From: Candidatus Omnitrophota bacterium
GTDB lineage: Bacteria; Omnitrophota; Gorgyraeia; Zapsychrales; JANLHA01
Assembly: GCA_963662715.1 (NCBI GenBank)
Contig: OY759724.1
Span: 480,001 to 512,000 of the forward strand
DNA length: 32,000 nucleotides
Reading direction: 5' to 3'
A program made the translations under genes and the position numbers. The notes under the pieces were generated by a model. It saw nothing but the letters and a program-made list of their open reading frames with translations. It had not been told where the DNA came from and did not search any database. The stretch's first letter is position 1; every line of letters starts with the position of its first letter. This document shows, in pieces, positions 14,349-30,193 of the stretch.

Positions 14349-15125
14349 ATGAATCTTACTAAAGAACTAGAAATATCCCAAACAGCCGCACAGCGGGCCG
14401 CGGAAGCCATTTTAGACATATATCACGGCCGGGCATTTCAAGTCGAGATGAAAGACAATAAAAGCCCGCTGACTTCAGCCGACAAGAAAGCCAATGACAT
14501 TATTGTTAAAACCCTCTCCGAAACCTTCCCGGACTATGCGCTGCTGTCTGAGGAATCCCAAGACGACCGCCGCCGGTTAGCCAATAAATGGTGTTGGATT
14601 GTCGACCCTCTGGACGGCACGAAGGAATTCATAAAAAGAAACGGGGAGTTCACGGTCAATATCGCGCTTTCCTATGAAAACAGGGCCGTGCTCGGGGTGA
14701 TCTATGTCCCGGTGACGCACGAAATGTATTATGCGGTGAAAGGTCAAGGGGCCTATCATGTGAAAAACCATCATGCTTGTAGGATTTATGTTTCCGAGCG
14801 GAAGAAAGACATACGGCTTGTCATGAGCCGGTCACATGCCTCGGAACAGCTGCAGCGTGTTATCGATAAAAACGCGATCACCGATATCAAAAAATCCGGC
14901 AGCTCTTTAAAGGGGTGCCTGGTGGCCCAGGGCGCAGCAGAGATTTATTACCGCTTCAACCCCACGATGGAATGGGATACGGCGGCGATGCAGTGCATTG
15001 CAGAAGAAGCCGGAGGGATTTTCCGGCAATTGGATGACTCCGAAATGTTGTATAACAGGGAAAACAGCTTAAACAGCCGGGGATTCTATGTCCTTAACTG
15101 TGCGGACAACAAACTGGAACTCTGA
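14349..15125 (+). CDS. cysQ: 3'(2'),5'-bisphosphate nucleotidase CysQ (inositol monophosphatase superfamily)
   Basis: LSEES (metal-binding E), WIVDPLDGTKEF (the IMPase DPxDGT motif), and WDTAA near the C-terminus. It is divergent from the cysC-cysD-cysN genes. Confidence 0.85.
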   Translation: MNLTKELEISQTAAQRAAEAILDIYHGRAFQVEMKDNKSPLTSADKKANDIIVKTLSETFPDYALLSEESQDDRRRLANKWCWIVDPLDGTKEFIKRNGEFTVNIALSYENRAVLGVIYVPVTHEMYYAVKGQGAYHVKNHHACRIYVSERKKDIRLVMSRSHASEQLQRVIDKNAITDIKKSGSSLKGCLVAQGAAEIYYRFNPTMEWDTAAMQCIAEEAGGIFRQLDDSEMLYNRENSLNSRGFYVLNCADNKLEL

Positions 15126-15265
15126 ATCTAAGAAATAACATTCCAACCTTTTACTGGGCCCACCTATAGTACCACTACTATAAACGACAATACATTAGTT
15201 AAGATTATTTGCCTTAAGATATCGCGGAAGGTCTCATGAAATGGGTCAAAGAGGATTCTTTTCCG

Positions 15266-17068
15266 TTAAGAAGATAAATTGGTATGAATCAATTCTAATA
15301 TTTTCTCAACCACTTGCTCTCGCGGACTGTGTTCTGCAACATGCAAATCAGCCATCCCGGATGAGGAATCCTCATCCCCCACCCAGACCGTTTTGATCTG
15401 GTCGTCATCAATCGAGGTATGAATGATCTCCAGGTCAGACTTTTGCAGCTCTATCGCCGTTATAATCAGTATTGTCCCCATATTCAACATGATGTTGGCG
15501 ACCTCCGCAAGCCGGCGGAAATGTTCCGGGTGAGTGTCGGGATCATTCGTTAAATCAGCATCCAGACCGTGAATGACGTTACCGATCCCCAAGAAGTAAA
15601 CCAGCTTTCCCTGCATAAAGAGCCTTTCCTCCAAGGCCCGGGCTATTTCTTTGCGAGGGGCATCCCGCCGTCCGGTTATTAAAATCAAAGCGGCTTTCTG
15701 CCCATATCTTTCAAAACGCTGCTCCCGGGAAATATTGCTCATAATCCACCGGTAATTGCGTTCGATGACCATTTGCCTGACCTGGGATTGGGCGTCCTCG
15801 AGCGCCTCATAAATAATCCCGCCGCCGGATATGTTGTTTTGGTCAACAATAACGAATCTGCTGGTCGGGCTTATTCTGTCAGCCAGATCAAAGGCGATGG
15901 CCCGCGGCATTTTCAAAATGCACTTTGCCACCTCGTGGCGGGCAATCTTCTGGGCCGTATCAGTGCTGTCCAGGTTGGACGCGTTGAGGACTTGTTCTAT
16001 TTTTTCAATCTCTACCGGGACTTTCATAGTCCCGAGTTTGAGATGATATGTTTTACCCAGCTCCATGGGAGCCCGTCCCATCCAGAATAAATTAACCTTA
16101 ATTCTGGAGGTGACCTCCGGGGGATGGCCATGAAAAGCGGTTAACATTTCTCCTCTTTTAACATAAATCTGCTCGGTTAACGTCAGTCCAACAGCATAAC
16201 CGGCCCCGATCCCCGGCACAGCAGGCTGGTTAAACATTTCAATGGATTTGACATAGCTCTTCTTGCCGGAGGGATAAAAAACAACTTCATCCCCCACGTT
16301 GACGGTTCCGGTACTGATCGTTCCGCTGATGATACGGCGGTCATCCTGGAACTTCGTGAATTTATAAATATCCTGGACCGGCATCCGCAACGGCAAATTT
16401 TCATCAATATCCTTTTTATGAAATTCATCTAATATTTCAAAGACGGTTTTCCCGAAGTACCAGCTTAAATTCTCCTGCCGTTCGGAAATCATATCTCCCT
16501 CCCGTCCGCTGACGGGGATAAAACATGTCGCCTGAATTCCAATCTTTTCCAAAAATTCCTGATACTGTTGACTGATTTGTCTGAAAACATCCTCCTCATA
16601 GGAAACGAGGTCCATCTTGTTCACGAGGACAGCGACCTGTTTTATTCCCAGCATAGACAGCATGTAGCCGTGTCGGCAGGAATTCTCCTGAACCCCCTCC
16701 TTGGCGTCGATCACTAAAAGGGCCGCTTCGGCCCGCGCAGCCCCGGTGACCATATTCTTCAAGAACTCGATATGTCCCGGAGCATCAATAATGATGTAGT
16801 GGCGTTTGGACGTCTTAAAAAAAACCCTGGCAGAATCTATGGTAATGCCCTGGGCTTGTTCATCCTTTAAAGCGTCTAACAGAAAAGCATACTCGAAGGG
16901 TTTGGAATTATTTTCACATTGCTGACGGACCTGCTCAAGCTTCCCCTGGGGCAGAGAGCCGGTATCTGCCAGCAGGCGGCCCACGATAGTGCTTTTGCCG
17001 TGGTCAACGTGTCCCACAATAACGATATTCATGAATTGAGATGTCATAATATTAAAGAGTTGCCGCAA
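15266..17068 (-). CDS. cysN: Sulfate adenylyltransferase subunit 1 (CysN GTPase) fused to a degenerate APS-kinase-like C-terminal domain
   Basis: GTPase motifs [14 protein letters not shown] and NKMD, followed by EF-Tu-like beta-barrel domains. The last 165 aa or so align to CysC ([10 protein letters not shown] vs RRVGEVANLM), but the catalytic motifs are replaced. It lies directly downstream of cysD. The start is ambiguous: TTG at 17068, ATG at 17047 or ATG at 17032, none with a clear SD. Confidence 0.85.
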
Positions 17069-17129
17069 CTATATATTGATTAACCGAAACAATGTCCTGA
17101 ACAAAACTCGAAAGCCGGCCGGTTCCGCC

Positions 17130-18011
17130 TTACATATAACCTTCTCTTCTCAAGGTTTCCAGCCCCCCGCCGTCATCTTTATCCTGCGCCCGGCCGGAAC
17201 GCTCAGCGATATTGGAAAATTTACCGGTCCTTAATTCTTCGATGATATCATCGACGTTCTTAGCGGTAGATTCCACCGGGAGAGTACAGGGATAACAGCC
17301 GAGAGACCGGTAGCGCGTTCCCTTTCCCTGATCATAATACAGAGAAACGGTCGGAATCCCTTCTTTTTTGATATATTCCCAGATATTCAACTCCGTCCAA
17401 TCCAGCAAAGGATGAATCCTTAAATGTGTGCCTTCAGAAAAATCTGTATTAAACTGATCCCAAAATTCCGGCGGCTGATCGCCAATATCCCAAAGGCTCT
17501 CTTTGTCCCTGGGGGAAAAATACCGCTCTTTGGATCTTGAGCCCTCTTCATCGGAGCGAATGCCGACGATGACCCCGGTGAAGGACTCGGTGCCTGTATA
17601 TTCCTCATAAAGATCCTTGTCATGATTGAAACGGAAACGCGGCCCTGTTCCCTCCAGCGTACTCTTAAGGGCGTCGGTTTTAAGAAGCCGGCAGCAGCGC
17701 AGACGGTCCACTTGTCCGTCCGGAAAAGTTTGTTTTTCTGCCAGAGCCGCCTGATTCTGGCCGTAAAACATATTCAAATGCCATTCCCGGGTGAGCCGGT
17801 CACGATATTCGATCATTTCCGGGATCTTATACGCTGTGTCGATATGCACCAGGGGGATCGGGACGTGCCCGAAAAACGCCTTGCGGGCAAGCCACAACAG
17901 CACAGTACTGTCCTTGCCAATGGACCAGAGCATGCAAAGATTTTTAAAATTCGCATAGGCTTCTCTCAAGATATAAATACTTTTATTTTCGAGTTCTGTT
18001 AAATGGTCCAC
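17130..18011 (-). CDS. cysD: Sulfate adenylyltransferase subunit 2 (CysD, PAPS-reductase/ATP-PPase fold)
   Basis: [15 protein letters not shown]...[20 protein letters not shown] contains the SxGKDS PP-loop. ...[16 protein letters not shown]... and the C-terminal [20 protein letters not shown] are typical of CysD. Confidence 0.9.
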
Positions 18012-18039
18012 ATCCGGTGCCCTCGTTAAAAATACACGC

Positions 18040-18765
18040 CTATATATTCAAATAGCGGTCTATTTGTTTTTTAAGGCAAGAAAATGTTTCTTCTACCGTC
18101 TGCCCCTCGGTCTTGATAACAATTTCAGGGTTCTGCGGTCTTTCATAAGGATCATCGATACCCGTAAAATATTTGATTTCTCCGGCCCGAGCCTTTTTAT
18201 ATAATCCTTTAACATCACGCTGTTCACATATCTCAATCGGCGTGTCGACATGAATCTCCACAAAATTTTGACACAAATCGCGGACAAAATTGCGGGCATC
18301 CTGATAAGGCGAAACAAAGGAAGACACAACAATAACTCCGTTACGTTCAAGCATAGAAGCAAGAAATCCGACCCTCTTGATGTGATTATCCCGTTCTTCT
18401 TTTGTAAAACCGGTCTTAGGGAAGACCGAACGGACGACATCCCCGTCTAAACGCTCCACCCGCAATCCCTTTTCGGCGATATAATCGTAGGCCCGGCTGG
18501 CCAGCGCGCTTTTCCCGGACCCGGATAATCCCGTAAACCAGAGAACAAAAGGTTTGACGCTTTTTTTGCCGAAAGAGATTTTATTCCAGACACGTTCATG
18601 AAAGAAATATAAAATCATCTTTGCAATAATTTCAATGCCTCCCACAGACACGGCCAGGAAAAATCTTTTCGTAAAAAAATAAACAATGGTGCACGTCGTA
18701 ATCGTTGCCCAAATACGCCAGGAAATGGTCTTTAATATCGACCGGCTTCTTTTTTCAATATACAT
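18040..18765 (-). CDS. cysC: Adenylyl-sulfate (APS) kinase CysC with an N-terminal DUF2061-like two-TM membrane domain
   Basis: The kinase part has an intact P-loop [22 protein letters not shown] and [21 protein letters not shown]. The N-terminal 65 aa or so, [22 protein letters not shown]...[20 protein letters not shown], match the SWR...HERxW signature I recall for DUF2061. Confidence 0.85.
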
Positions 18766-20495: not shown

Positions 20496-21353
20496 TTAAG
20501 GAGTAATTAATTTTAAAGATTTAGGCAGAATCTTAATGTGAACAGACTTATACCTCAAAATCTCCCCGTCGCTTTGAAAATGCTGCTTCGGATCGGATGT
20601 GATTTCGATTTCCCGGACCTGCCAGTGCCTCAGGAAGCCACGAAAAATATTCTTTCTTCCTTCAAAAATATTTTTTAAATCCGTATGATTGATAATAATA
20701 ACGTCCAGCAACCCGTCATCGACCTGAATTTTAGATGATATGGAGATTCCCGGCAAACCCAAATTTCCGCTATTGGCGACAATGCACGCCAGGCCTCTTT
20801 CCTCGTACTCCTTCCCATCTAATGTTAACTGATACAGAGACGGAGTGGTTTTTAACGCCGCTTTTAAACTGTTCAGCGCATAGGCCAGCCACCCGATCCT
20901 GGTCTTGATATCCGGTTTTGTCTCTCTGACAACTTCGGCCTCAAAACCGCTGCTCACTCTTATCAAAAAATACTTGTGCCCCATCTGTCCCACATCAATC
21001 TCCCGGATACGATGCTGGCCCAGGCACAAATTAACCGCTTTCTCAACATCCTGGGCTATTCTTAATTCATTGGAGATCACGTTAGCCGTGCCGCCCGGGA
21101 GAATAAGCAACGGGGTTTTTCCGCCAATCAAGGCTCCAGCGGCTTCCTGGACCGTTCCGTCCCCGCCGTAAATAACGATCACATCCGCGTTTTCAGCAAC
21201 CGAAAGCTTCACAAACCGGGAAACATCCTCTTTGTTTTTAGTGACGTGCACGTCCCAGGACACCTTCTGGCGGGACAACACTTTATTTAAAGTGTAAAGG
21301 ACCGGGTATTTCATGCCCGATGAGGGATTTATGATAATGCTTAACCGTTTCAT
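20496..21353 (-). CDS. DAGK-catalytic-domain lipid kinase (YegS/BmrU/DgkB/sphingosine-kinase fold), copy 2
   Basis: LSIIINPSSG, VIVIYGGDGTVQEAAGAL (GGDGT motif) and LLILPGGTANVISNEL (GT.N motif). 285 aa. Confidence 0.8.
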   Translation of the reverse strand: MKRLSIIINPSSGMKYPVLYTLNKVLSRQKVSWDVHVTKNKEDVSRFVKLSVAENADVIVIYGGDGTVQEAAGALIGGKTPLLILPGGTANVISNELRIAQDVEKAVNLCLGQHRIREIDVGQMGHKYFLIRVSSGFEAEVVRETKPDIKTRIGWLAYALNSLKAALKTTPSLYQLTLDGKEYEERGLACIVANSGNLGLPGISISSKIQVDDGLLDVIIINHTDLKNIFEGRKNIFRGFLRHWQVREIEITSDPKQHFQSDGEILRYKSVHIKILPKSLKLITP

Positions 21354-21475
21354 AAAATATAATAATGTTTTATTTCTAAATCTTTTTCTGACAGCCCACC
21401 TTCAGAATACACCACATCTTTTTTCGGGATCGAAAAAAAGACATCGGGATGCGTTTCGGCTTTATGCCGGCTCTT

Positions 21476-21868
21476 TCAGGCCCGCAGACTCTTATAGGAA
21501 ATAAAAAAGATAATCATAAAAATCAGATCAAAGAATGCAAACGGGACCCAAATCCAGGGCATTTGACCTGCCAGCCAGTGCGGGAATACGACTAAGCAGT
21601 AGGAGAGCTTAATCAGGACAGCATAAATGATAAGACTCCTGTTGGCAAGGGGGTCCCTGGCGATATTAAAAAGCATATAGGCGAAAATGACCAAAATGCA
21701 GGCCGGGAACTGGACATACCCGATATGATTGGGCGGGGGGATCTGTACGGCATGAAAAATGGCCAGCGGCGCAATAAGAAAAGCGGCTCCGAGAATACCG
21801 TCATAAAACGCTGCCACGATATAAAAGGGTTTGATCCATTTAGGGATATTCATATTTTCCTCTTTCAT
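21476..21868 (-). CDS. Small 4-TM membrane protein of unknown function, within the lipid operon
   Basis: 130-aa ORF with four hydrophobic helices, lying between the UbiA-family gene and the second lipid kinase on the same strand. An alternative start at Met6 (21853) has AGAGGA upstream. Confidence 0.55.
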   Translation of the reverse strand: MKEENMNIPKWIKPFYIVAAFYDGILGAAFLIAPLAIFHAVQIPPPNHIGYVQFPACILVIFAYMLFNIARDPLANRSLIIYAVLIKLSYCLVVFPHWLAGQMPWIWVPFAFFDLIFMIIFFISYKSLRA

Positions 21869-21903
21869 TTTTTATTTATAAAATATTGTATCAATTTTTT
21901 CCG

Positions 21904-22875
21904 CTAAGCCAAAGCATCTTTATGAAAATCAAATAACCAGCCAATAAGGACAAAATTGATCAGGTAAAGCATCCCGGAAAGAAACGGATGCAGCAAAGCT
22001 ATAAAACCGGTCTCATAGAGTACCGCGCCCCTGAATGTCCATTTCAGCGAGTAATATGTCTTTTCACCGTGTGCGTTCCGAAAAAACAACACGGCCGTGT
22101 ACTGCATGATCAGAAAAGTCAATACCATCAATCCCGTAAAAAAGGGATTAATACAGCCTTTCCAGGGATCGAAAAAGAACATGAAAACAACAATCCCGAA
22201 GGGAAGGCTGCTCATCATAACGTTCAGATATTTTGCTTTTCCGGGAGACAACTTGACAACAATCGTTTTGATCCCGGCCGCCTTATCCCCCTGATAATCT
22301 TTAAAATACGTATAAAAAGCGACTGCCACATTCATGAGAATCACGCCTAAAGCCAGGACAGCTAACTGAGCATCCGCCATAATTTCCAGCCCTTTTCCGT
22401 TCAAACACATGGCACCGTAATAAAGACACGGCGCAACAAGACAGCCAAAAACAATATTCCCCAGGATAAGAATTCTTTTGGAATATTCATAAACGATATT
22501 GAGGAGAAAAACGAGCACATACAGGGTTAAAGCATATGGATTTAATAGAAGCGTTATTCCGGCCCCCAATACAAATAATCCCGCGCTTATACCCACAGCC
22601 GAACCGACCGGAAGTCGTCCCGTGACAAGCGGCCGGCGGGGCGCATTGATTCTGTCTTCTTTAAGTCCCAACAGATCATTGATGACCTGGTTGACGCCCC
22701 ACCCCACAAAAACGACGGTCAAAACAAGCGCCGTTCTAAAAGGAGTGATCTCTGCCCCGCAGAATGCTATCCCCAGGCACCCTGTCATGCCGGAGATAAA
22801 AAACAAATACGGACGCATGGATTTTATATAATTTAAAATAACACTCCTGGAAAATATCATACTAGACCTTTTCAA
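21904..22875 (-). CDS. UbiA-superfamily prenyltransferase, DGGGP-synthase/chlorophyll-synthase-like subgroup
   Basis: First motif NDLLGLKEDRINAPRRPLVTGRL (compare NDxxDxxxDxxNxPxRPxxSG). Second motif FKDYQGDKAAGIKTIVV (DxxxDxxxGxxT). About 8-9 TM helices. The start overlaps the upstream fusion gene by 14 nt. Confidence 0.85.
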   Translation of the reverse strand: MKRSSMIFSRSVILNYIKSMRPYLFFISGMTGCLGIAFCGAEITPFRTALVLTVVFVGWGVNQVINDLLGLKEDRINAPRRPLVTGRLPVGSAVGISAGLFVLGAGITLLLNPYALTLYVLVFLLNIVYEYSKRILILGNIVFGCLVAPCLYYGAMCLNGKGLEIMADAQLAVLALGVILMNVAVAFYTYFKDYQGDKAAGIKTIVVKLSPGKAKYLNVMMSSLPFGIVVFMFFFDPWKGCINPFFTGLMVLTFLIMQYTAVLFFRNAHGEKTYYSLKWTFRGAVLYETGFIALLHPFLSGMLYLINFVLIGWLFDFHKDALA

Positions 22876-25225
22876 TCAGACGCATTTTTTTATACAGGGG
22901 GACCTCTTCCTTGTTTTGAAACTGCTCCATAAGCTGCAGCGCATCCTCACCCGTTACTGGGAATGCCGTAATCTTCTTCTCTTCTATATACCGGCGTATC
23001 CTGCCATGCTCGGAATTACACAGCCAACTTAGACACGGCTTCTTAAAATGTGCCCTCATACGGTCAAAAATCACAGAAAAAGGCTCCTCTTGAACATTGC
23101 CGCAGGAAACATTTAAAAATTCACAGGGCTGAATTTCTCCGTGAGCGTTCACATAAAAACGCTCGATTCCCCCGGCCGTGCATCCGAAGGCCTCGGGGGA
23201 AGATTCAAAAACCTGCATGGAAAGCGACGGGAAATCCCGAAGCTCCCTGGCCTTGTTCAAACGCCAGTGATCGGCGCAAAGACGGGCGATCAGCTCCCGA
23301 TCCATTAAAGTGTTCCCCCTCCGGAGCCATCCCCCGGCAGGTTTTTCATGAATAACCTGCACAAAACTGCAGCCTAGTTCCCTGCCAAGCTGCAATATCT
23401 TTTTTATGCCGTCATCCATTATCATCTCCCGGGAAGGACAGCAATTGATGACAGCCGTAACACCTGTATCTGCAAATATGCGGATCGCCTTGCAGGCGAT
23501 CCGAAAAGCTCCTTCAAAGCCCACAAACTCATCGTGCTTTTCAGCCTCCCAATGATGCAGGGAGACCATCACTCCGAAAAGTCCGGCCTGCCGGAGACGC
23601 CAGGCCTTTTCATAAGTTAATGTGTGCCCCGTGGTGTTCACCCAGACTTCCCTCTCAGAGTCCAGAGACCCGATGAGTTTTAGCAAACGTTCATATTTTA
23701 ATAAAGGTTCGCCGCCTTCGATATCAAACATACTTATACCGGCATGCTGAATATCACGGGCGAGCCGCAAGAGATCGGCTTCCGGCAGGTCTTCACCGGC
23801 GTCACGTTTTTGATAGCAGTGCCGGCAGTGATACCCGCAGGCTTTTGTCATGGAAAAAACAACTGTTGTCGGATAGGTTGCATCATCGGTGATCAAAAAT
23901 TTATCGATGGCTTTATAAAAAGCCCTGCTTGGAAAAGCCGGAAGATACAAATGTATTTTATAGACATTATTTATTTTTACGGCCTTGTTATACCCGAGGA
24001 CTTTCGAGAGGAGAAGCATTCTTTTAACGAAAAAAGCATACTGTTTCAAGGTTATCGCCCCCTTCAACAAACGGACGAAATACCGCAAAAAAATTGTCAG
24101 GCCCATTGTCACATCTAATAATATGCGGCCGAAACCGACAACAAACTGCTGTTGCAAGGGCCTCTGTCTGTCATAGGGGATTGGCAGGAAACCATTCTGC
24201 CGCCACCAGCGGACTGTTTCTGCGACACCCTGCTCCAGGGACACCGTCTGTTTAAAACCCAAAACATCCCCGGCTCTGGCCGTAGCATAAACATTATGAC
24301 AATAAAACATCTTGACCCGGGCCCGGGTCAAAAGAAAAGGTTCTTTGGCTCCCAGGAGCTTCGCCATAAGTTCCAAAAACACGGCTGAAGGATAAAAGAC
24401 CCACAAAGGGAGATATACCGGCGGTCTTATCCCTAAATTCCGGCAATATAAATTAAAATATTCCCGGATGTTCGGGGCCCGGTCATTACCCATGTTAAAA
24501 ACATGAACCCCGGATAAATCCTTTTCCAAGGCGAGCAGCATGCCCCGGACCAGATCTTTCACATGAATAACGTGAAATCTATTGGTGCGTCCCATCGGCA
24601 TGACCCGCATCCCCTGCAAGACAGCGCGGCAGAATTCATACGGCCCCGAATGAAACTCCCTGGGGCCATAAACCCAGACCGGACGTATCACGACCAAATT
24701 CAAATCACCTTCCCCGGCTATGCCAACGGCTTCCTGCTCCGCCAGCATTTTCGTTTCGCGGTAATAATTCATATCTGACGGAAAAATAGCCGACAGAAAA
24801 TATGGCATGTCCGGCCGGTAAGGGGCTTCTTCCGGCTTGGGCTTTTCTTCATCCTCTTCACCCAAAACAGCAATGCTGCTTACCAAAACAACCTTTTTCA
24901 CTCTTTGCTCCTTGGCCGCACGAACAACATTGCGGGTCCCCTGAACATTGATTTCATGAAAGTCTTTCTTCCGGCCCCAGTCAGAAGCCAAAGCGGCCAC
25001 ATGAAAAACGGCGTCACAGCCGCTCATCGCTTCCGTCACTCCGGCAGAGTCCCTAATATCCCCATAGCAAATTTTGATCTTGTCTACCGGGAGAAACCGC
25101 AGATCACTGCCCGGACGCAGCAGAACCGTCACCTCATATTGACCGGCCACTAAACGGTCCACCAGATGACTGCCGATAAACCCCGAAGCCCCGGTCACAA
25201 AGACTTTCCGTATTCCGCTGTTCAT
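22862..25225 (-). CDS. Fusion protein: N-terminal NAD(P)-dependent extended SDR (epimerase/dehydratase/3beta-HSD-like reductase), hydrophobic linker, C-terminal radical SAM domain with a Cys-rich SPASM/twitch-like extension
   Basis: SDR part: VFVTGASGFIGSHL (residues 8-21) and YRETK (Y155/K159, the YxxxK motif). Radical SAM part: CGYHCRHC = Cx3Cx2C (C463/C467/C470, encoded at 23816-23839), plus DIEGGEPLL. C-terminal part: FGCTAGG...GEIQPCEFLNVSCGNV...PCLSWLC. 787 aa with no internal stop. Confidence 0.85.
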   Translation of the reverse strand: MNSGIRKVFVTGASGFIGSHLVDRLVAGQYEVTVLLRPGSDLRFLPVDKIKICYGDIRDSAGVTEAMSGCDAVFHVAALASDWGRKKDFHEINVQGTRNVVRAAKEQRVKKVVLVSSIAVLGEEDEEKPKPEEAPYRPDMPYFLSAIFPSDMNYYRETKMLAEQEAVGIAGEGDLNLVVIRPVWVYGPREFHSGPYEFCRAVLQGMRVMPMGRTNRFHVIHVKDLVRGMLLALEKDLSGVHVFNMGNDRAPNIREYFNLYCRNLGIRPPVYLPLWVFYPSAVFLELMAKLLGAKEPFLLTRARVKMFYCHNVYATARAGDVLGFKQTVSLEQGVAETVRWWRQNGFLPIPYDRQRPLQQQFVVGFGRILLDVTMGLTIFLRYFVRLLKGAITLKQYAFFVKRMLLLSKVLGYNKAVKINNVYKIHLYLPAFPSRAFYKAIDKFLITDDATYPTTVVFSMTKACGYHCRHCYQKRDAGEDLPEADLLRLARDIQHAGISMFDIEGGEPLLKYERLLKLIGSLDSEREVWVNTTGHTLTYEKAWRLRQAGLFGVMVSLHHWEAEKHDEFVGFEGAFRIACKAIRIFADTGVTAVINCCPSREMIMDDGIKKILQLGRELGCSFVQVIHEKPAGGWLRRGNTLMDRELIARLCADHWRLNKARELRDFPSLSMQVFESSPEAFGCTAGGIERFYVNAHGEIQPCEFLNVSCGNVQEEPFSVIFDRMRAHFKKPCLSWLCNSEHGRIRRYIEEKKITAFPVTGEDALQLMEQFQNKEEVPLYKKMRLIEKV

Positions 25226-26151
25226 GAGACAATCACCTCTAAACTCTTTGGCAGCACCTCAATGGTTGCCGGGAGTTTCCCCCTCATGTCACCGTCGAAT
25301 TCAATAAAGACGTCCTCCCGCTCCGAACAAACTTCAACCTTTCGGCCATAACGCATGCCCGCATGTTTGTACTCCATGAAATCACCGACATACAGTTTAG
25401 GGACGTTCGCAAGCAATGAAAACAAGCTGCCTTTTCTTAATGAGAACAAAAAAAGCTTCCCGTCATCAGGAAGCACATCACTAAAGACTCTCATCCCGGA
25501 AGCCAGATACGGATCTTTACCGACGGTTAAATTGATTAAAGATGTGAAGTCCGTCTTTTCTCCGTCTATTTTCACTTTCAAATCAACACCCTGAAAATTC
25601 CAGACAGCTGTTAAGGAAGACACCAGCGTCCCCAGAAAATCCCCCAGGTATTTTCTATAACGTGAATTGGCCTTACCGGCGATATGCGGCCCAAGCCCCA
25701 CGTTGACGCTGCTGCCGAAATAAAACACTCTTTCGTCTCCGGCCAGGTCCCGGAAAGAGACTTTGCCCACATCAACGCTCCGGGTTCTGCCGGCCAACAA
25801 GGCTTCAAGGGCCTCATCAAGGCGGACAGGGATATGACAATACCGGTTAAAGTCAGGACTTGTTCCGACGTGCAGTACGCCCAATGTCCTGGACGCGGCC
25901 GGGCTGTTCTGCCGCAGGCCCGTTATCACTTCACAGATCGTGCCGTCACCTCCGACAGCCACCACCACATCATAATCCCTTTCCCCGGCCTGCCGTGATA
26001 TATCGACGGCTTCATCCTTTCTCGAAGTCATCTGATAATCAAAATCAACCTTCCGGAGCTTCATTTCGGAAATAATCCGCCGGCACTGTTTATACGCACC
26101 GCCTGATCTGGCCGTCGGGTTCATAACCAAAAAATACTTCAACGGAGCCAT
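25222..26151 (-). CDS. DAGK-catalytic-domain lipid kinase (sphingosine/ceramide/diacylglycerol kinase fold), copy 1
   Basis: FLVMNPTARSG, VVVAVGGDGTICEVITGL (GGDGT) and LGVLHVGTSPDFNRY (GT..DF). It overlaps the upstream AOS gene by 13 nt and the downstream fusion gene by 4 nt (ATGA). Confidence 0.8.
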   Translation of the reverse strand: MAPLKYFLVMNPTARSGGAYKQCRRIISEMKLRKVDFDYQMTSRKDEAVDISRQAGERDYDVVVAVGGDGTICEVITGLRQNSPAASRTLGVLHVGTSPDFNRYCHIPVRLDEALEALLAGRTRSVDVGKVSFRDLAGDERVFYFGSSVNVGLGPHIAGKANSRYRKYLGDFLGTLVSSLTAVWNFQGVDLKVKIDGEKTDFTSLINLTVGKDPYLASGMRVFSDVLPDDGKLFLFSLRKGSLFSLLANVPKLYVGDFMEYKHAGMRYGRKVEVCSEREDVFIEFDGDMRGKLPATIEVLPKSLEVIVS

Positions 26152-27329
26152 TCCGGCTTCTCCTGCTTTATCTCCTCAAACGCTGAAATCGTTTTATCGA
26201 TGTCCTCATCTTCCAGCAGGGCGTTCACCGTTAAACGGATCCGCGCCGTGTTCTTGGCGACGCTCGGAGGGATGAACGGGACGCCATAAATGCCCCGCTC
26301 GGAAAGCATTTTGGCAGCCAGGAACGTGTTTTCGCTGGTCTTAAACACAACCGACACCAGCGGGGTCGTTGAGCCGGTCAGGTTGAATCTCATCTGATCC
26401 AGGGCCTCATACAGCTTCCTGGCGAGCCGCATGATTTTTTCTCTTAGCCGGGGGTGATCTTCCACGTAGCGCAAAGAAGCGATGGTCGCTCCGGCCATAA
26501 CAGGCGGCAATGCGGTTGAATAAAAATACATCGGGGCCTTATAACGGAAGCCGTCAATAATATCGGCCTTGCCGGCGATAAACCCGCCAAACGTCCCGAC
26601 AGCCTTGCCGAAAGACCCGGTCATCAAATCCACATCCTGATAAGTGTCCGTCAGTTCAAGAATTCCCCGGCCTTCCCGCCCCAAGACCCCCAACCCGTGG
26701 GCATCATCAACGATCACAAAAGCGTCGTGCCTGCGGGCAACATCCGTGAGTTCTTTAAGCGGAGGGGTGTCTCCGTTGGTGCTGTAAAGCCCTTCCAGGA
26801 CAATAAACTTGACGCGATAATGACAACACCGCAAGAGGGTCTTCTCAAGTTTGTTCATATCATTATGCGGGAAAATCTTAAACGCCGCTTTCGATAAGGC
26901 CACACCGTTTAACAGGGATGAATGAATCTCTTTGTCGGCAATAATAACATCGTTCTCCCCGGCCATGAGCTGAAACAGGCTCATATTGGCCTGATAACAG
27001 GAAGGAAAGACCAAAGCATCTTCCTGTTTAAGAAAACGGGCCGTAGCCAGTTCCAGTTCCCGGTTGACAGCGGACTGTCCGACGACAATAGGGGTCCCGC
27101 ACAAACTCAAACCGAAAGTCTCTAAAATCTTCGTCGCCTCCTTCTTGATGACGGCATTATTAGCGATGCCCAGATAATCATTTGTTCCTAAAGAAACCAT
27201 TTTTCTGCCGTTAACGGTAATTTCCCGGGCCAGCCCGCTCTGAACGATCTGATAATAGGCGTTGAAGTTTATATCGTCTGCCAGCTTTTTATCAATGTAC
27301 AAGCTATCAATTAATTCTTTTTTGGACAT
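26139..27329 (-). CDS. PLP-dependent alpha-oxoamine synthase family enzyme (serine palmitoyltransferase / BioF / Kbl / cysteate-acyltransferase family)
   Basis: GTNDYLGI, DKEIHSSLL (the PLP-stacking His), VDDAHGLGVLG, and GSFGKAVG (the Schiff-base Lys). I placed the start at 27329 (MSKKELI...) because GAGGAG lies 6 nt upstream. The 41-codon extension in the ORF track has no homology-like features. Confidence 0.85.
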   Translation of the reverse strand: MSKKELIDSLYIDKKLADDINFNAYYQIVQSGLAREITVNGRKMVSLGTNDYLGIANNAVIKKEATKILETFGLSLCGTPIVVGQSAVNRELELATARFLKQEDALVFPSCYQANMSLFQLMAGENDVIIADKEIHSSLLNGVALSKAAFKIFPHNDMNKLEKTLLRCCHYRVKFIVLEGLYSTNGDTPPLKELTDVARRHDAFVIVDDAHGLGVLGREGRGILELTDTYQDVDLMTGSFGKAVGTFGGFIAGKADIIDGFRYKAPMYFYSTALPPVMAGATIASLRYVEDHPRLREKIMRLARKLYEALDQMRFNLTGSTTPLVSVVFKTSENTFLAAKMLSERGIYGVPFIPPSVAKNTARIRLTVNALLEDEDIDKTISAFEEIKQEKPEWLR

Positions 27330-27518
27330 ACGCGTCTCCTCATGTTGTTTAACCCTGCCCTTAACTTGTTCACGTGCTGCTTTTCCGCCCCCTCTTATTC
27401 CAAAATGTGTTTCCCCCGGACAAAAGGCATGCCCTGATGACAAGAATCCCATTTCCTGGCGTCTGGCTTACCGTGGGTGGCCGGCGTGAGGTGTGAAAAT
27501 AATTTTGTCTACACAAAA

Positions 27519-27547
27519 AGTTTACCACTCAATTATTTATCTGTCAA
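27519..27547 (-). promoter_or_regulatory. Candidate sigma70 promoter for the lipid operon (TTGACA-N17-TAAACT, minus strand)
   Basis: Read directly. On the minus strand, TTGACA is at 27547-27542, followed by a 17-nt spacer and TAAACT at 27524-27519. This would give a leader of about 180 nt before the ATG at 27329. The -10 element is imperfect. Confidence 0.3.
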
Positions 27548-27718
27548 TTTTTATCTCTGCAGACCGCCGCACAGGACAAAACGCTCCCGGGGCAAAAAAA
27601 ATAACCCATTGTAAATTCTGCGTTACAATGAGCTATCTTCTTTCATCACATATCCCCCATGACGCCTCACAGGCAAAAAAGCAGGATTTTCACCTTACAG
27701 GGCCCGGGGAACAATTTT

Positions 27719-28042
27719 TTATTTAACGACATCATCCGCGGGCACAGTGAACATAACCCCCATGCCATCTTCTTCAAAATTAATTTTTTCTTCTTTAAGA
27801 ATGGCATAGAAATCTTTCAGGACATTTTCGTCTTCTATTAAAGCAAAAATCGTTTTGTTATGTTGCTTCTCCTGTCCGACAATTTTACGCAATCCCGCAA
27901 AAATAGGGACATCGTAAGCCAAGGCATGCGCCATGCCTTCAGAATCAATAATCGTCGCTCCGGTGATTCCGAGTTCAGCCATAATAGAAATAATGTCGTT
28001 CAGGAACTCCTCTTTATTAAGGACGATAAACAATAATTTCAT
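27719..28042 (-). CDS. PII-like (GlnB/DarA-fold) small signal-transduction protein
   Basis: 107 aa. MKLLFIVLNKEEFLNDIISIMAELGITGATIIDSEGM reproduces the beta-alpha-beta start of PII-family proteins (compare MKLVTAIIKP..L..V..AL...GI.G.TV..V.G.G). It starts 39 nt downstream of the CPA2 antiporter gene. Confidence 0.55.
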   Translation of the reverse strand: MKLLFIVLNKEEFLNDIISIMAELGITGATIIDSEGMAHALAYDVPIFAGLRKIVGQEKQHNKTIFALIEDENVLKDFYAILKEEKINFEEDGMGVMFTVPADDVVK

Positions 28043-28081
28043 ATATTCCTCCTAACCAATTTAATACACAAATGTGTGTTT

Positions 28082-29299
28082 TCAGGTACGGCGGCGATAA
28101 TTCATCAATTTCCCGACTTCGCCGGCTTTTTCTATTGCAATTTTAGTTGTCATCGGGCCAATGATTTCAAAAATAATAGTCGTGGCGGCAATCGTATTGA
28201 TAACCAAGGTCGCCACAGCTTCCCCCTCCGGCCCCAAAGCGGAGAATTCTTTTACCGTGATCAGGGCCAGACCGATAGCGACGCCTGCCTGAGATAAAAT
28301 ACCCAGGCCCAAATAATTCCTCACATTTTTATCAGCACGGCTGACTGTCGCCCCGAAGTAAGCCCCTCCGATAAGCCCCACGGTCCTGCCTATAATATAC
28401 AAAATTCCCAGAAGCCCCATGGACGGGAGCAGGTTAAGGTGTAAATGGGCGCCGGCCAGCACAAAAAAGAGCACAAAGATCGGTGCCGTAAGCCCTTCAA
28501 TGACATTGGCGGCCCTTCGGGATGCATGCAAGGATATGTTCGTAAGGACCAGCCCCACCATAAGATTAGTTAAAATGAGAGACAAGTGATATGCATTGCT
28601 TAACCCTGCACACAAAAAAATGGCCCCTAGCGTTATAACCAGAGTTTCGTTCTTTGAACGGACATGCCTCAAGACAAAAGCCAGCACCGCTCCTACCCCT
28701 GCACCTAATATCAACGATTCCACTATTTCGGCCACCGGTCCGACAAGAAACGATTCTGCCGTCATCATCTGAGCGCCCGTTATCATATTTTTGGCTAAAG
28801 CGGCGGCAAGACCGTAAATAATGATGGCCAATCCATCGTCCAGACCAACCACAGAAAGCAGGGTACTGGTTAAAGGGCCCTTGGCCTTATACTCCTGCAA
28901 AACGGCGACAGTACCCGCAGGAGCGCTGGCCGGCGCCATGGCTCCGAATATTAAGGCCAGATAACCTTTATGGGTCAAGAAATACACTAAAGCAGCTACA
29001 CAAAAAAAAGCAAAAAAAGACTCGGCAAAAATAATAGTGGCCAAACCCGCGCCCTGCCTTCTCAACACTCCCGCGCGCATCTCACTGCCGATAGTGAACG
29101 CGACTATGGCTAAGGCGATATCACTGATAATGCCCATACTGTCAACCAGATGGTCAGTGAATATCCCCAGGAAGGAAGGCCCTAATATCAGTCCGATAAG
29201 AATGTACCCCACGACCCCGGGGAATTTGAACCGGCCGACAATTTTACTGCCGGCGTAGCCCAGGATGAGGGCCAAGCCCATCAAAAATAAGATTTCCAT
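28082..29299 (-). CDS. Monovalent cation:proton antiporter, CPA2/Kef-type (Na_H_Exchanger domain only, no RCK/KTN domain)
   Basis: MEILFLMGLALILGYAGSKIVGRFKFPGVVGYILIGLILGPSFLG is the classic CPA N-terminus. 405 aa with about 12-13 TM helices, ending right after the membrane domain. Confidence 0.85.
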   Translation of the reverse strand: MEILFLMGLALILGYAGSKIVGRFKFPGVVGYILIGLILGPSFLGIFTDHLVDSMGIISDIALAIVAFTIGSEMRAGVLRRQGAGLATIIFAESFFAFFCVAALVYFLTHKGYLALIFGAMAPASAPAGTVAVLQEYKAKGPLTSTLLSVVGLDDGLAIIIYGLAAALAKNMITGAQMMTAESFLVGPVAEIVESLILGAGVGAVLAFVLRHVRSKNETLVITLGAIFLCAGLSNAYHLSLILTNLMVGLVLTNISLHASRRAANVIEGLTAPIFVLFFVLAGAHLHLNLLPSMGLLGILYIIGRTVGLIGGAYFGATVSRADKNVRNYLGLGILSQAGVAIGLALITVKEFSALGPEGEAVATLVINTIAATTIIFEIIGPMTTKIAIEKAGEVGKLMNYRRRT

Positions 29300-29317
29300 A
29301 ATAGTATCCTTACTATT

Positions 29318-29779
29318 CTAAACAGGTTCTTCAATCCTGTTAAAAGCTTTAATAATATCTTCCGCGCTGCTTGCACCAATGAGTGTGCCACGGAACTCTT
29401 CCTTTTTTAATATCCGCGTCAAATAGGCCAAGGCTTTCAAATATGTCCCCATATCTTTCTTCGGCGTCCCCAGCAGAAAGATCAGTTTAACGGGCTGATG
29501 ATCAATCGCGTCAAAATCAATACCCCGGCCAGACTTTCCAAAAGCAATGACAAGATTGTTTACGGCTTCTGTCCTGGCATGAGGCACGGCAATCTGATGT
29601 CCGATACCCGTTGTCATGGCGGCTTCCCGCTCAAAAACCTCTTGTAAAAACTGGTCAAAATCCTGGACTTCAGGAGAACCCTTCAGCAAGTCCGCCAATT
29701 CCCTGATCGCCTCTTCTTTGGTCGTTGCCTGTAAATCTGAGCAGATAAAATCTGCTTTTAAGTATTTAGATATTTCCAT
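29318..29779 (-). CDS. ptsN: PTS EIIA type-2 domain protein (PtsN / EIIA-Ntr-like regulator)
   Basis: 153 aa. The phosphorylatable His motif is TGIGHQIAVPHART; later VKLIFLLGTPK. AAAGGAG lies upstream of the ATG. It is the first gene of the antiporter operon. Confidence 0.75.
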   Translation of the reverse strand: MEISKYLKADFICSDLQATTKEEAIRELADLLKGSPEVQDFDQFLQEVFEREAAMTTGIGHQIAVPHARTEAVNNLVIAFGKSGRGIDFDAIDHQPVKLIFLLGTPKKDMGTYLKALAYLTRILKKEEFRGTLIGASSAEDIIKAFNRIEEPV

Positions 29780-29872
29780 AATAGCTTTCGCTCCTTTTTA
29801 GAAATCGTTTTGACATTTATCTAAAAAAACACTTCGTTCTATAAAATATACCAGGGATCAGAAAATAAAAAT

Positions 29873-30193
29873 TCAAATGAGAAGAGGAGGAGCATGGTTG
29901 AATAATTTTGATGATTTTGAGAAAGAAAAACATGTCGTTATAAAAACATCCGAAAATACCGGCTGGTTTGAAGAGGCCGCAGCACATGTCAGAAGAGATA
30001 ACGGCTCGTATTTAAAGGAATGGACATATTTCGATTTGATTCTTAAGTCTGTTTTTCCAATTTCATAAACTTCGCTTTCTTTCTCGATATCAACATCAAC
30101 AAAGAAAGGATTCCCCTCCCACAGGCTGAGCTGGAGGATCAGGCTCAAGGACAGGAACAGGCGGGCGATAATAAATAATTTATGTTTTAACAT
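29873..30193 (-). CDS. Hypothetical small secreted or membrane protein (weak call)
   Basis: 106-aa ORF with a signal-like N-terminus MLKHKLFIIARLFLSLSLILQLSLW, on the same strand as all its neighbours. A 63-aa ORF on the opposite strand (29877-30068) overlaps it and cannot be excluded. Confidence 0.3.
   Translation of the reverse strand: MLKHKLFIIARLFLSLSLILQLSLWEGNPFFVDVDIEKESEVYEIGKTDLRIKSKYVHSFKYEPLSLLTCAAASSNQPVFSDVFITTCFSFSKSSKLFNHAPPLLI

Follow-up and report, generated by a model that had tools for sequence, protein, structure and literature searches.

An EIIA protein and a PII-like protein encoded beside a membrane-domain-only cation/proton antiporter: a candidate composite regulatory module in Omnitrophota and other phyla

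Introduction

The stretch of DNA analyzed here, referred to as the window, comprises 32,000 nucleotides (nt) of contig OY759724.1 from a Candidatus Omnitrophota bacterium (assembly GCA_963662715.1, positions 480,001 to 512,000). It carries three adjacent genes that encode a type-2 EIIA protein of the phosphotransferase system (PTS), an antiporter of the cation/proton antiporter (CPA) superfamily with 405 amino acids (aa), and a small PII-like protein of 107 aa. Database records label such proteins as "PTS sugar transporter subunit IIA", "cation:proton antiporter", and "P-II family nitrogen regulator" or "hypothetical", respectively.

Trans-acting small regulators of transporters are an established principle. 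In Escherichia coli, PtsN in its unphosphorylated form binds to YcgO, a CPA1 antiporter, and inhibits it; phosphorylation weakens this contact (PMC11808508). The T-loops of PII-family proteins physically plug the transporters AmtB and SbtA, as described in a "valve plug" study that mentions neither antiporters nor the PTS (bioRxiv 10.1101/2023.08.10.552651). Furthermore, ligand fishing with GlnZ from Azospirillum brasilense recovered TrkA together with an EIIA-Ntr, and a ternary complex was proposed in that study (PMC7646526).

Results

A candidate operon of three genes

The three genes (Table 1) are all encoded on the minus strand and point in the same direction. A first-pass annotation of the window had described them as tightly spaced and co-directional, with gaps of 18 nt between the EIIA and antiporter genes and 39 nt between the antiporter and PII-like genes, and the map of open reading frames (ORFs) agrees. 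By direct reading of the sequence, a Shine-Dalgarno-like site precedes every start codon in the unit. The next gene downstream encodes a class I/II aminotransferase, which is part of an unrelated lipid-type cluster. Because a gap of 266 nt and then this unrelated gene follow, the trio is likely to be its own transcription unit. The promoter-like sequence TTGACA-17-TAAACT at 27547..27519 is a consensus match only and does not rise above shuffle expectation, and a scan for promoters and terminators found nothing exceeding that expectation. One operon for a regulated cation/proton antiporter would be the best explanation of this arrangement.

Two other features were seen in the immediate surroundings. 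A short inverted repeat, ACACA-CATT-TGTGT (28066-28079), was noticed by eye in the spacer between the antiporter and PII-like genes, just 5' of the AGGAGG sequence. Immediately upstream of the EIIA gene lies a 106-aa ORF (29873..30193, minus strand) with a hydrophobic N-terminus and no Pfam match. We considered this ORF as a degenerate PII gene and rejected the idea, as it had neither a Pfam match nor any resemblance to PII.

Table 1. Coordinates of the features discussed, numbered within the window
Feature	Position	Strand	Basis
EIIA gene: PTS EIIA type-2, stand-alone, 153 aa	29318..29779	-	Pfam PF00359
Antiporter gene: CPA superfamily, 405 aa, membrane domain only	28082..29299	-	Pfam Na_H_Exchanger, AF2
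PII-like gene: 107 aa, unnamed PII subfamily	27719..28042	-	AF2, Foldseek, family profile
Shine-Dalgarno-like AAGGAG, 11 nt 5' of the EIIA start	29791..29796	-	direct sequence reading
Shine-Dalgarno-like AAGGA, inside the 18-nt EIIA-CPA spacer	29307..29311	-	direct sequence reading
Shine-Dalgarno AGGAGG, inside the 39-nt CPA-PII spacer	28048..28053	-	direct sequence reading
266-nt intergenic region closing the three-gene unit, with promoter-like site for the next gene	27453..27718	-	ORF map
Class I/II aminotransferase, KBL/serine-palmitoyltransferase-like	26139..27452	-	Pfam
Two DAGK/YegS-type lipid kinases	25222..26151 and 20496..21353	-	Pfam
UbiA prenyltransferase	21904..22875	-	Pfam
NAD-dependent epimerase/dehydratase + radical SAM fusion, 787 aa (unusual)	22862..25225	-	Pfam
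CysN-like GTPase fused to APS-kinase domain	15266..17068		Pfam
PAPS_reduct-domain (CysD-like) protein	17130..18011		Pfam
APS kinase with N-terminal DUF2061 membrane segment	18040..18765		Pfam
Inositol-monophosphatase/CysQ-like gene	14349..15125		Pfam

The three gene products

The antiporter matched Pfam Na_H_Exchanger (E=3.8e-29) over residues 11-386 of its 405 residues and contained no further domain. Its AlphaFold2 (AF2) model (mean predicted local distance difference test score, pLDDT, 86; predicted TM-score, pTM, 0.84) shows helices all the way between residues 2 and 404 without any soluble domain, and neither Pfam nor the model revealed an RCK, KTN, or CBS domain. Foldseek placed NapA, NHA2 (query TM-score, TMq, 0.80), MjNhaP1, PaNhaP, and SOS1 at the top of the structural matches, with KefC only at rank 48. 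A single-sequence phmmer search of the Protein Data Bank (PDB) returned no match, and a family profile was needed; the closest entries were then the CPA1 members PaNhaP and MjNhaP1 (6.7e-9). An Asp-Asp pair in transmembrane helix 5 (TM5) is the signature of the CPA2 type, whereas CPA1 proteins have Asn-Asp. D154-D155 in TM5 of the window protein is invariant in the family alignment and aligned with the Asn-Asp of PaNhaP. Its homologs of about 400 aa number more than 4000. The transporter is, as judged from its sequence, a CPA-superfamily antiporter with a CPA2-like Asp-Asp motif. Of the earlier description as a Kef-type CPA2 protein lacking RCK, the CPA fold, the Asp-Asp motif, and the missing KTN/RCK domain stand, whereas the Kef-type assignment is not established, given the rank of KefC and a score of only 40 bits against a cut-off of 238.3 for the NCBIfam CPA2 model (TIGR00932). 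As for the transported ion, we only infer that K+ or Na+ is exchanged against H+.

The EIIA protein matched Pfam PTS_EIIA_2 (PF00359) with E=1.4e-37 over residues 6-147, scoring 129.3 bits against a gathering cut-off of 27, and also passed TIGR00848 for the fruA-type EIIA domain (115 bits, cut-off 103.5). The putative phospho-acceptor His67 is located in the sequence A-V-P-H-A-R-T, in which the active-site motif [AG]-[IV]-P-H is present. All 120 related EIIA domains examined have this histidine, be they stand-alone, joined to PII in either order, or joined to HTH_17. The previously proposed type-2 EIIA with an intact phospho-histidine motif AVPHART is thereby borne out. The window protein and PtsN of E. 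coli share 28% identity, and His67 aligns with H73, the phosphorylated residue of PtsN. Calling the protein "EIIA(Ntr)-like" as a statement of family membership did not hold up, because both PtsN equivalog models stayed far below their cut-offs (TIGR01419, 76.4 against 138.7; NF008145, 53.7 against 221), leaving a likeness by analogy only. Among the neighbors of the EIIA gene, Pfam searches of the window ORFs found no rpoN or hpf gene, and 20 further ORFs of the window contained no PTS, rpoN, amtB, or glnA gene. The window protein is, on sequence grounds, a type-2 EIIA with an intact active site, but no PtsN ortholog.

The PII-like protein scored 21.7 bits with Pfam P-II (PF00543), below the gathering score of 25 that many members of its family pass, and had no match in NCBIfam. 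Its AF2 model, built with 49 homologs (pLDDT 82), consists of two beta-alpha-beta units connected by a loop at residues 34-55. Foldseek retrieved PotN (7o4x), GlnK3, GlnB, and GlnZ as top matches, all with probability 1.0, and the family profile matched Aquifex GlnB (2eg1) over its full length (E=1.6e-4). The predicted topology and the Foldseek matches confirm the PII fold of the 107-aa protein, one of the points on which the first-pass annotation had proposed to test its own proposal. The T-loop has the canonical length and is conserved more strongly than any other part of the family. It contains the hydrophobic motif V-P-I-F-A-G-L (residues 45-51), in which P46, I47, F48, and G50 are invariant in the family alignment. 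F48 takes the position of the canonical modifiable Y51, and no modifiable T-loop residue (Y51 or S49) is present. The B-loop reads G-[TM]-G-[IV]-x-F, which keeps the two glycines of the canonical GDGKIF and replaces K90 by I or V, and the protein terminates before the positions of R101 and R103. The family comprised 203 matches at 90% clustering and 615 representatives of 50% identity clusters at E<=1e-10 among 1.84 billion cluster representatives. We also noticed the PII-like domain in other fusions, namely with PilZ, a receptor of cyclic di-GMP (c-di-GMP), in the public protein P0443 (405 aa) and with a PrmC-type methyltransferase in P0416 (422 aa).

The triad is conserved across phyla

Two collections of loci were used to examine the neighborhoods. 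The PII-anchored sample was drawn from one genome per GTDB species with two PII-family motifs, which had been built from a 16-sequence subset of the family alignment, and consisted of the best 80 of 361 relatives. Among these, 55 loci had at least 2.2 kb of flank on both sides and were searched with the three window proteins by tblastn and phmmer. All three genes were found co-directional in 34 of the 55 loci. The antiporter was present in 40 and EIIA in 37, with six loci having the antiporter and the PII-like gene without EIIA. The metagenome-assembled genomes with the triad bear about eight phylum-level labels: Planctomycetales/Planctomycetia, Omnitrophota, Elusimicrobiota, Endomicrobiales, Zixibacteria, Latescibacterota, Aminicenantes, Ca. 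Makaraimicrobium, and Clostridia/Eubacteriales. The proteins are 42-72% identical to those of the window. The order EIIA-CPA-PII was the most common, alongside CPA-EIIA-PII, EIIA-PII-CPA, and arrangements in which two CPA paralogs lie in tandem. The triad is thus syntenic in relatives, as the original proposal had demanded, and its conservation despite the shuffled order points to selection for co-expression rather than to common descent of a single arrangement.

The CPA-anchored sample comprised 80 metagenome loci retrieved with CPA motifs, 53 of them with adequate flanks. EIIA and PII-like domains both occurred within 2.5 kb of the antiporter gene in 35 of these 53 loci. The type of PII-like domain followed that of the antiporter: the VPIFAGL type pairs with CPA orthologs of at least about 51% identity to the window protein, and an LPLFASFW type, fused to EIIA, with a clade of 42-50% identity.

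Fusion proteins join EIIA and PII-like domains in either order

Directly upstream of the antiporters of the 42-50% clade, we found 33 distinct EIIA-PII proteins of about 270 aa, consisting of an N-terminal EIIA domain (Pfam ~1e-30) and a C-terminal domain of about 110 aa. An alignment of the 33 C-terminal copies matched the PII family of the window with an hhalign probability of 97% (E=1.5e-11), and their loop carries the motif [LM]-P-L-F-A-[SG]-F-W. Moreover, proteins of similar size (~270 aa) with the reverse order, PII-EIIA, were encoded upstream of close CPA orthologs at about nine loci. Their N-terminal domain matched the PII family with an hhalign E-value of 5e-11 (Pfam P-II, E=0.0017), and at these loci a stand-alone PII gene of the VPIFAGL type still follows the antiporter gene. 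Fusions of both kinds were borne out by independent public gene calls, among them P0248, P0293, and P0309 (267-268 aa). Three further public calls (P0441, P0460, and P0484, 274-289 aa) combined PTS_EIIA_2 with a C-terminal match to the family profile, with Pfam P-II remaining sub-threshold in P0441 and P0484. In total, more than 40 distinct proteins fuse EIIA and PII, counting both orders. No fusion of the antiporter with EIIA or PII was seen in the examined loci. Gene pairs of EIIA and PII without an antiporter occurred at the KSB1 loci L049, L050, and L058. The fusion of the two domains in both orders argues for one composite module rather than two independent inputs.

A related protein type of about 235 aa, in which an HTH_17 DNA-binding domain is fused to an EIIA domain with the conserved histidine, is often encoded directly upstream of the EIIA/PII/CPA cluster (L082, 305-1012; L136, 2484-3188; ~25 other loci). 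These proteins may regulate transcription of the operon under phospho-control; no such gene is present in the window.

Antiporters with and without a regulatory tail

CPA paralogs that end in a pair of CBS domains (Pfam CBS 1e-12) are also present at many loci and allowed a comparison with the short antiporters. Among 98 short CPA genes with sufficient flanks, 76 had EIIA and/or PII as an immediate co-directional neighbor (47 had both and 17 had PII only), as opposed to seven of 24 CBS-tailed CPA genes. In the cases inspected among these seven, for example L139, the neighbor turned out to be an EIIA-PII gene preceding a short CPA. The difference corresponds to a Fisher odds ratio of 8.4 (p=1.4e-5) for loci that are not phylogenetically independent. 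This complementary distribution suggests that the trans regulators stand in for the missing cis domain. Some loci carry tandem arrays of up to four CPA paralogs, some of them CBS-tailed, interleaved with EIIA-PII genes (L139, 1247-2923 and 5266-7005; L161, 10916-12556).

PII-like or EIIA genes also adjoin genes for V-type ATPase (L052, L162), CNNM/CorB (L014), MgtE (L162), MatE (L022), MlaE (L037), and HisS (L050). At L052 (6001-8965), a PII-like gene lies by the V-type ATPase operon, as an EIIA ortholog does at L162 (1408-10462), where a gene for an MTS-type methyltransferase follows the EIIA gene. A variant of the triad was observed beside a hydrogenase-antiporter cluster of the Mrp/Mbh type (L161, 1-9000). 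These contexts hint at a wider role of EIIA/PII regulators in ion homeostasis or ion-motive machinery. In Gemmatimonadaceae (L055, L057, L060, L063, L065, L075, and L079), PII-like genes whose products show 43-46% identity adjoin a MurA-like gene; neither CPA nor EIIA was seen near them, with ORF calling being noisy from the high GC content.

Other genes of the window

The triad is followed immediately downstream by a series of lipid-type genes, which occupy window positions 20496-27452 on the minus strand (Table 1). This cluster may make an uncommon membrane lipid. Sulfate-activation genes are located at 14349-18765.

Discussion

The reading best supported by this analysis, which we regard as rather probable, is that EIIA and the PII-like protein make up one composite regulatory module for the antiporter. 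Its support comes from comparative genomics. The 405-aa CPA would be a transporter devoid of its own cytoplasmic regulatory domain, and the EIIA plus PII-like module would bind it and set its activity in place of RCK or CBS domains. EIIA would report the state of the phosphoenolpyruvate-dependent phosphorelay via His67. The PII-like protein, presumably a trimer, would report on a small molecule, with an adenine nucleotide or a second messenger as the most likely candidates. By analogy with the GlnK-AmtB and SbtB-SbtA plugs, it would touch its partner via the invariant VPIFAGL loop, whose extreme conservation and hydrophobicity make it the likely contact surface. The target of this loop may be the transporter, as a plug, or EIIA, as a relay. 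Physical binding, the partner that contacts the transporter, the direction of regulation, and the ligand are what we infer from these comparisons. A bolder extension, which we advance tentatively and with some doubt, is that the EIIA-PII module, either as a fusion or as two proteins, acts in many uncultivated phyla as a phospho-switchable plug that joins the PTS phosphorelay and PII ligand sensing on domain-less antiporters, perhaps on V-type ATPase or CNNM as well.

Several observations weigh against the composite module. The basic residues K90, R101, and R103, which contact the ATP phosphates in canonical PII proteins, are missing, and nucleotide sensing is accordingly not assured. The source of the phosphate for His67 is another difficulty, as neither the window nor the fetched loci yielded a gene for HPr, NPr, or Enzyme I; phmmer searches with HPr and NPr from E. 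coli and HPr from Bacillus subtilis had no match among all ORFs of the window and of 160 loci. CPA antiporters are usually dimers, as are, according to the literature, the CPA structures that the window model matched, and PII proteins are trimers. A PII trimer bound to a CPA dimer would not agree with it in symmetry, unlike the trimer-on-trimer complexes GlnK-AmtB and SbtB-SbtA. The module is also not exclusive to the CPA transporter: an EIIA of 56% identity adjoins V-type ATPase and MgtE genes without any CPA gene (L162), and the PII-like gene stands alone in 12 of the 55 PII-anchored loci, mostly in Gemmatimonadaceae and other distant members. Lastly, the sampled loci are not fully or phylogenetically independent, and the two collections have contigs in common (L030/L084 and L048/L087).

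The first-pass annotation had seen in EIIA and the PII-like protein two trans-acting sensors that replace an RCK domain, one for the phosphotransfer state and one for a nucleotide or second messenger. On this reading, each would bind the antiporter separately and carry an unrelated signal. The arrangement in the window, where separate genes flank the antiporter gene, would fit this proposal, as would the six loci that have the antiporter and PII without EIIA and others having the antiporter with EIIA only. There is also precedent for single regulators, since PtsN acts on YcgO (PMC11808508), and SbtB on SbtA, each by itself. However, the fusions of EIIA and PII in both orders and the EIIA-PII pairs without an antiporter in KSB1 are more in keeping with a joint unit than with independence. 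We therefore retain from the earlier proposal the trans regulators in place of a missing cis domain, for which the neighbors of the short and CBS-tailed antiporters speak, and consider two separate sensors unlikely. Slightly less likely still is a linear relay with a single small protein in contact with the antiporter, for example with PII as the plug and EIIA or its phosphorylated form bound to PII, where it would control the T-loop or the release of PII and not contact the antiporter itself. Such a relay would agree with PII being the steadier neighbor of the antiporter (40 of 55 loci, against 37 for EIIA), with the 17 short antiporters that have PII only, with the T-loop being the best-conserved region of the PII-like family, and with fusions that join EIIA to PII and, in the examined loci, not to the transporter. 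It is nonetheless a sub-case of the composite module that sequence does not separate from it. Phosphotransfer from EIIA to the PII T-loop was rejected as unlikely, since the loops of the three PII subtypes share no conserved His, Ser, or Cys.

We also weighed an incidental neighborhood, in which EIIA would be part of a PTS for sugar or nitrogen and the PII-like protein would serve nitrogen control, without any tie to the antiporter. Database names such as "PTS sugar transporter subunit IIA" and "nitrogen regulatory protein P-II" would suggest as much, and the fruA-type EIIA model does pass its cut-off. However, the surroundings in the window contain no gene for EIIB or EIIC and neither glnA nor amtB, the association is held across phyla with shuffled gene order and fusions, and it is distributed in a manner complementary to the CBS-tailed antiporters. 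The identities of 42-72% and the diverse taxon labels likewise argue against an artefact of close relatives. We thus consider a purely incidental association very improbable.

The composite module finds partial counterparts in several known systems. The closest on the EIIA side is the control of YcgO/CvrA (also of TrkA and KdpD) by PtsN, where a type-2 EIIA with a phosphorylatable histidine, aligned with His67, controls a CPA-superfamily antiporter through protein contact (PMC11808508). YcgO is a CPA1 antiporter, and PtsN docks on its C-terminal CorC/RCK region, whereas the window antiporter has no cytoplasmic domain. PtsN is encoded in the rpoN operon; the window EIIA is encoded with the transporter, failed the PtsN cut-off, and has a PII-like domain as its coupled or fused partner. 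On the PII side, SbtB-SbtA and GlnK-AmtB likewise pair a small PII-fold protein with a co-operonic transporter and have a conserved T-loop of canonical length. In contrast to the trimeric SbtA and AmtB, the window encodes a cation/proton antiporter, for which a dimer is expected, and unlike SbtB and GlnK, its PII-like partner has the hydrophobic VPIFAGL loop, lacks K90, R101, and R103, and comes with an EIIA for which there is no counterpart. PotN from the pot operons of Firmicutes (PDB 7o4x), the best structural match of the PII-like model (Foldseek E=2.8e-5, 21% identity), is also a PII-like protein in a transporter operon, but it belongs to a different subfamily, goes with a different transporter, an ABC polyamine uptake system, and has no EIIA partner. 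KefC/KefF, KhtTU, CpaA, and AmhMT exemplify CPA-fold antiporters that depend on a cytoplasmic nucleotide-sensing module. The regulator in the window differs from the RCK/KTN or CBS domains of CPA2 proteins in being a pair of EIIA and PII-like proteins from separate genes, and KefC itself is structurally distant. Each part (type-2 EIIA, PII superfamily, and CPA fold) and each pairwise theme is already known. A full-text literature search found no published description of the three-way operon, the EIIA-PII fusions, or the VPIFAGL subfamily of PII-like proteins, and a paper on an anammox antiporter proved to be unrelated.

PII and the regulatory PTS (EIIA-Ntr) are among the most widespread metabolic signaling systems of bacteria, and each has been tied to ion transport separately. 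A conserved operon and more than 40 fusions centered on a cation/proton antiporter would show that PII and the PTS can be wired into one device. The triad would be a cloneable three-gene system for studying how domain-less CPA antiporters are gated, and its recognition would name a PII-like subfamily of 615 clusters at 50% identity that neither Pfam nor NCBIfam recognizes. Most of the hosts are anaerobes that have not been cultivated (Omnitrophota, Planctomycetota, Elusimicrobiota, and Zixibacteria), in which ion and pH homeostasis is poorly understood. If the proposal is true, the EIIA-PII module would be a third way of gating CPA transporters, beside RCK and CBS domains.

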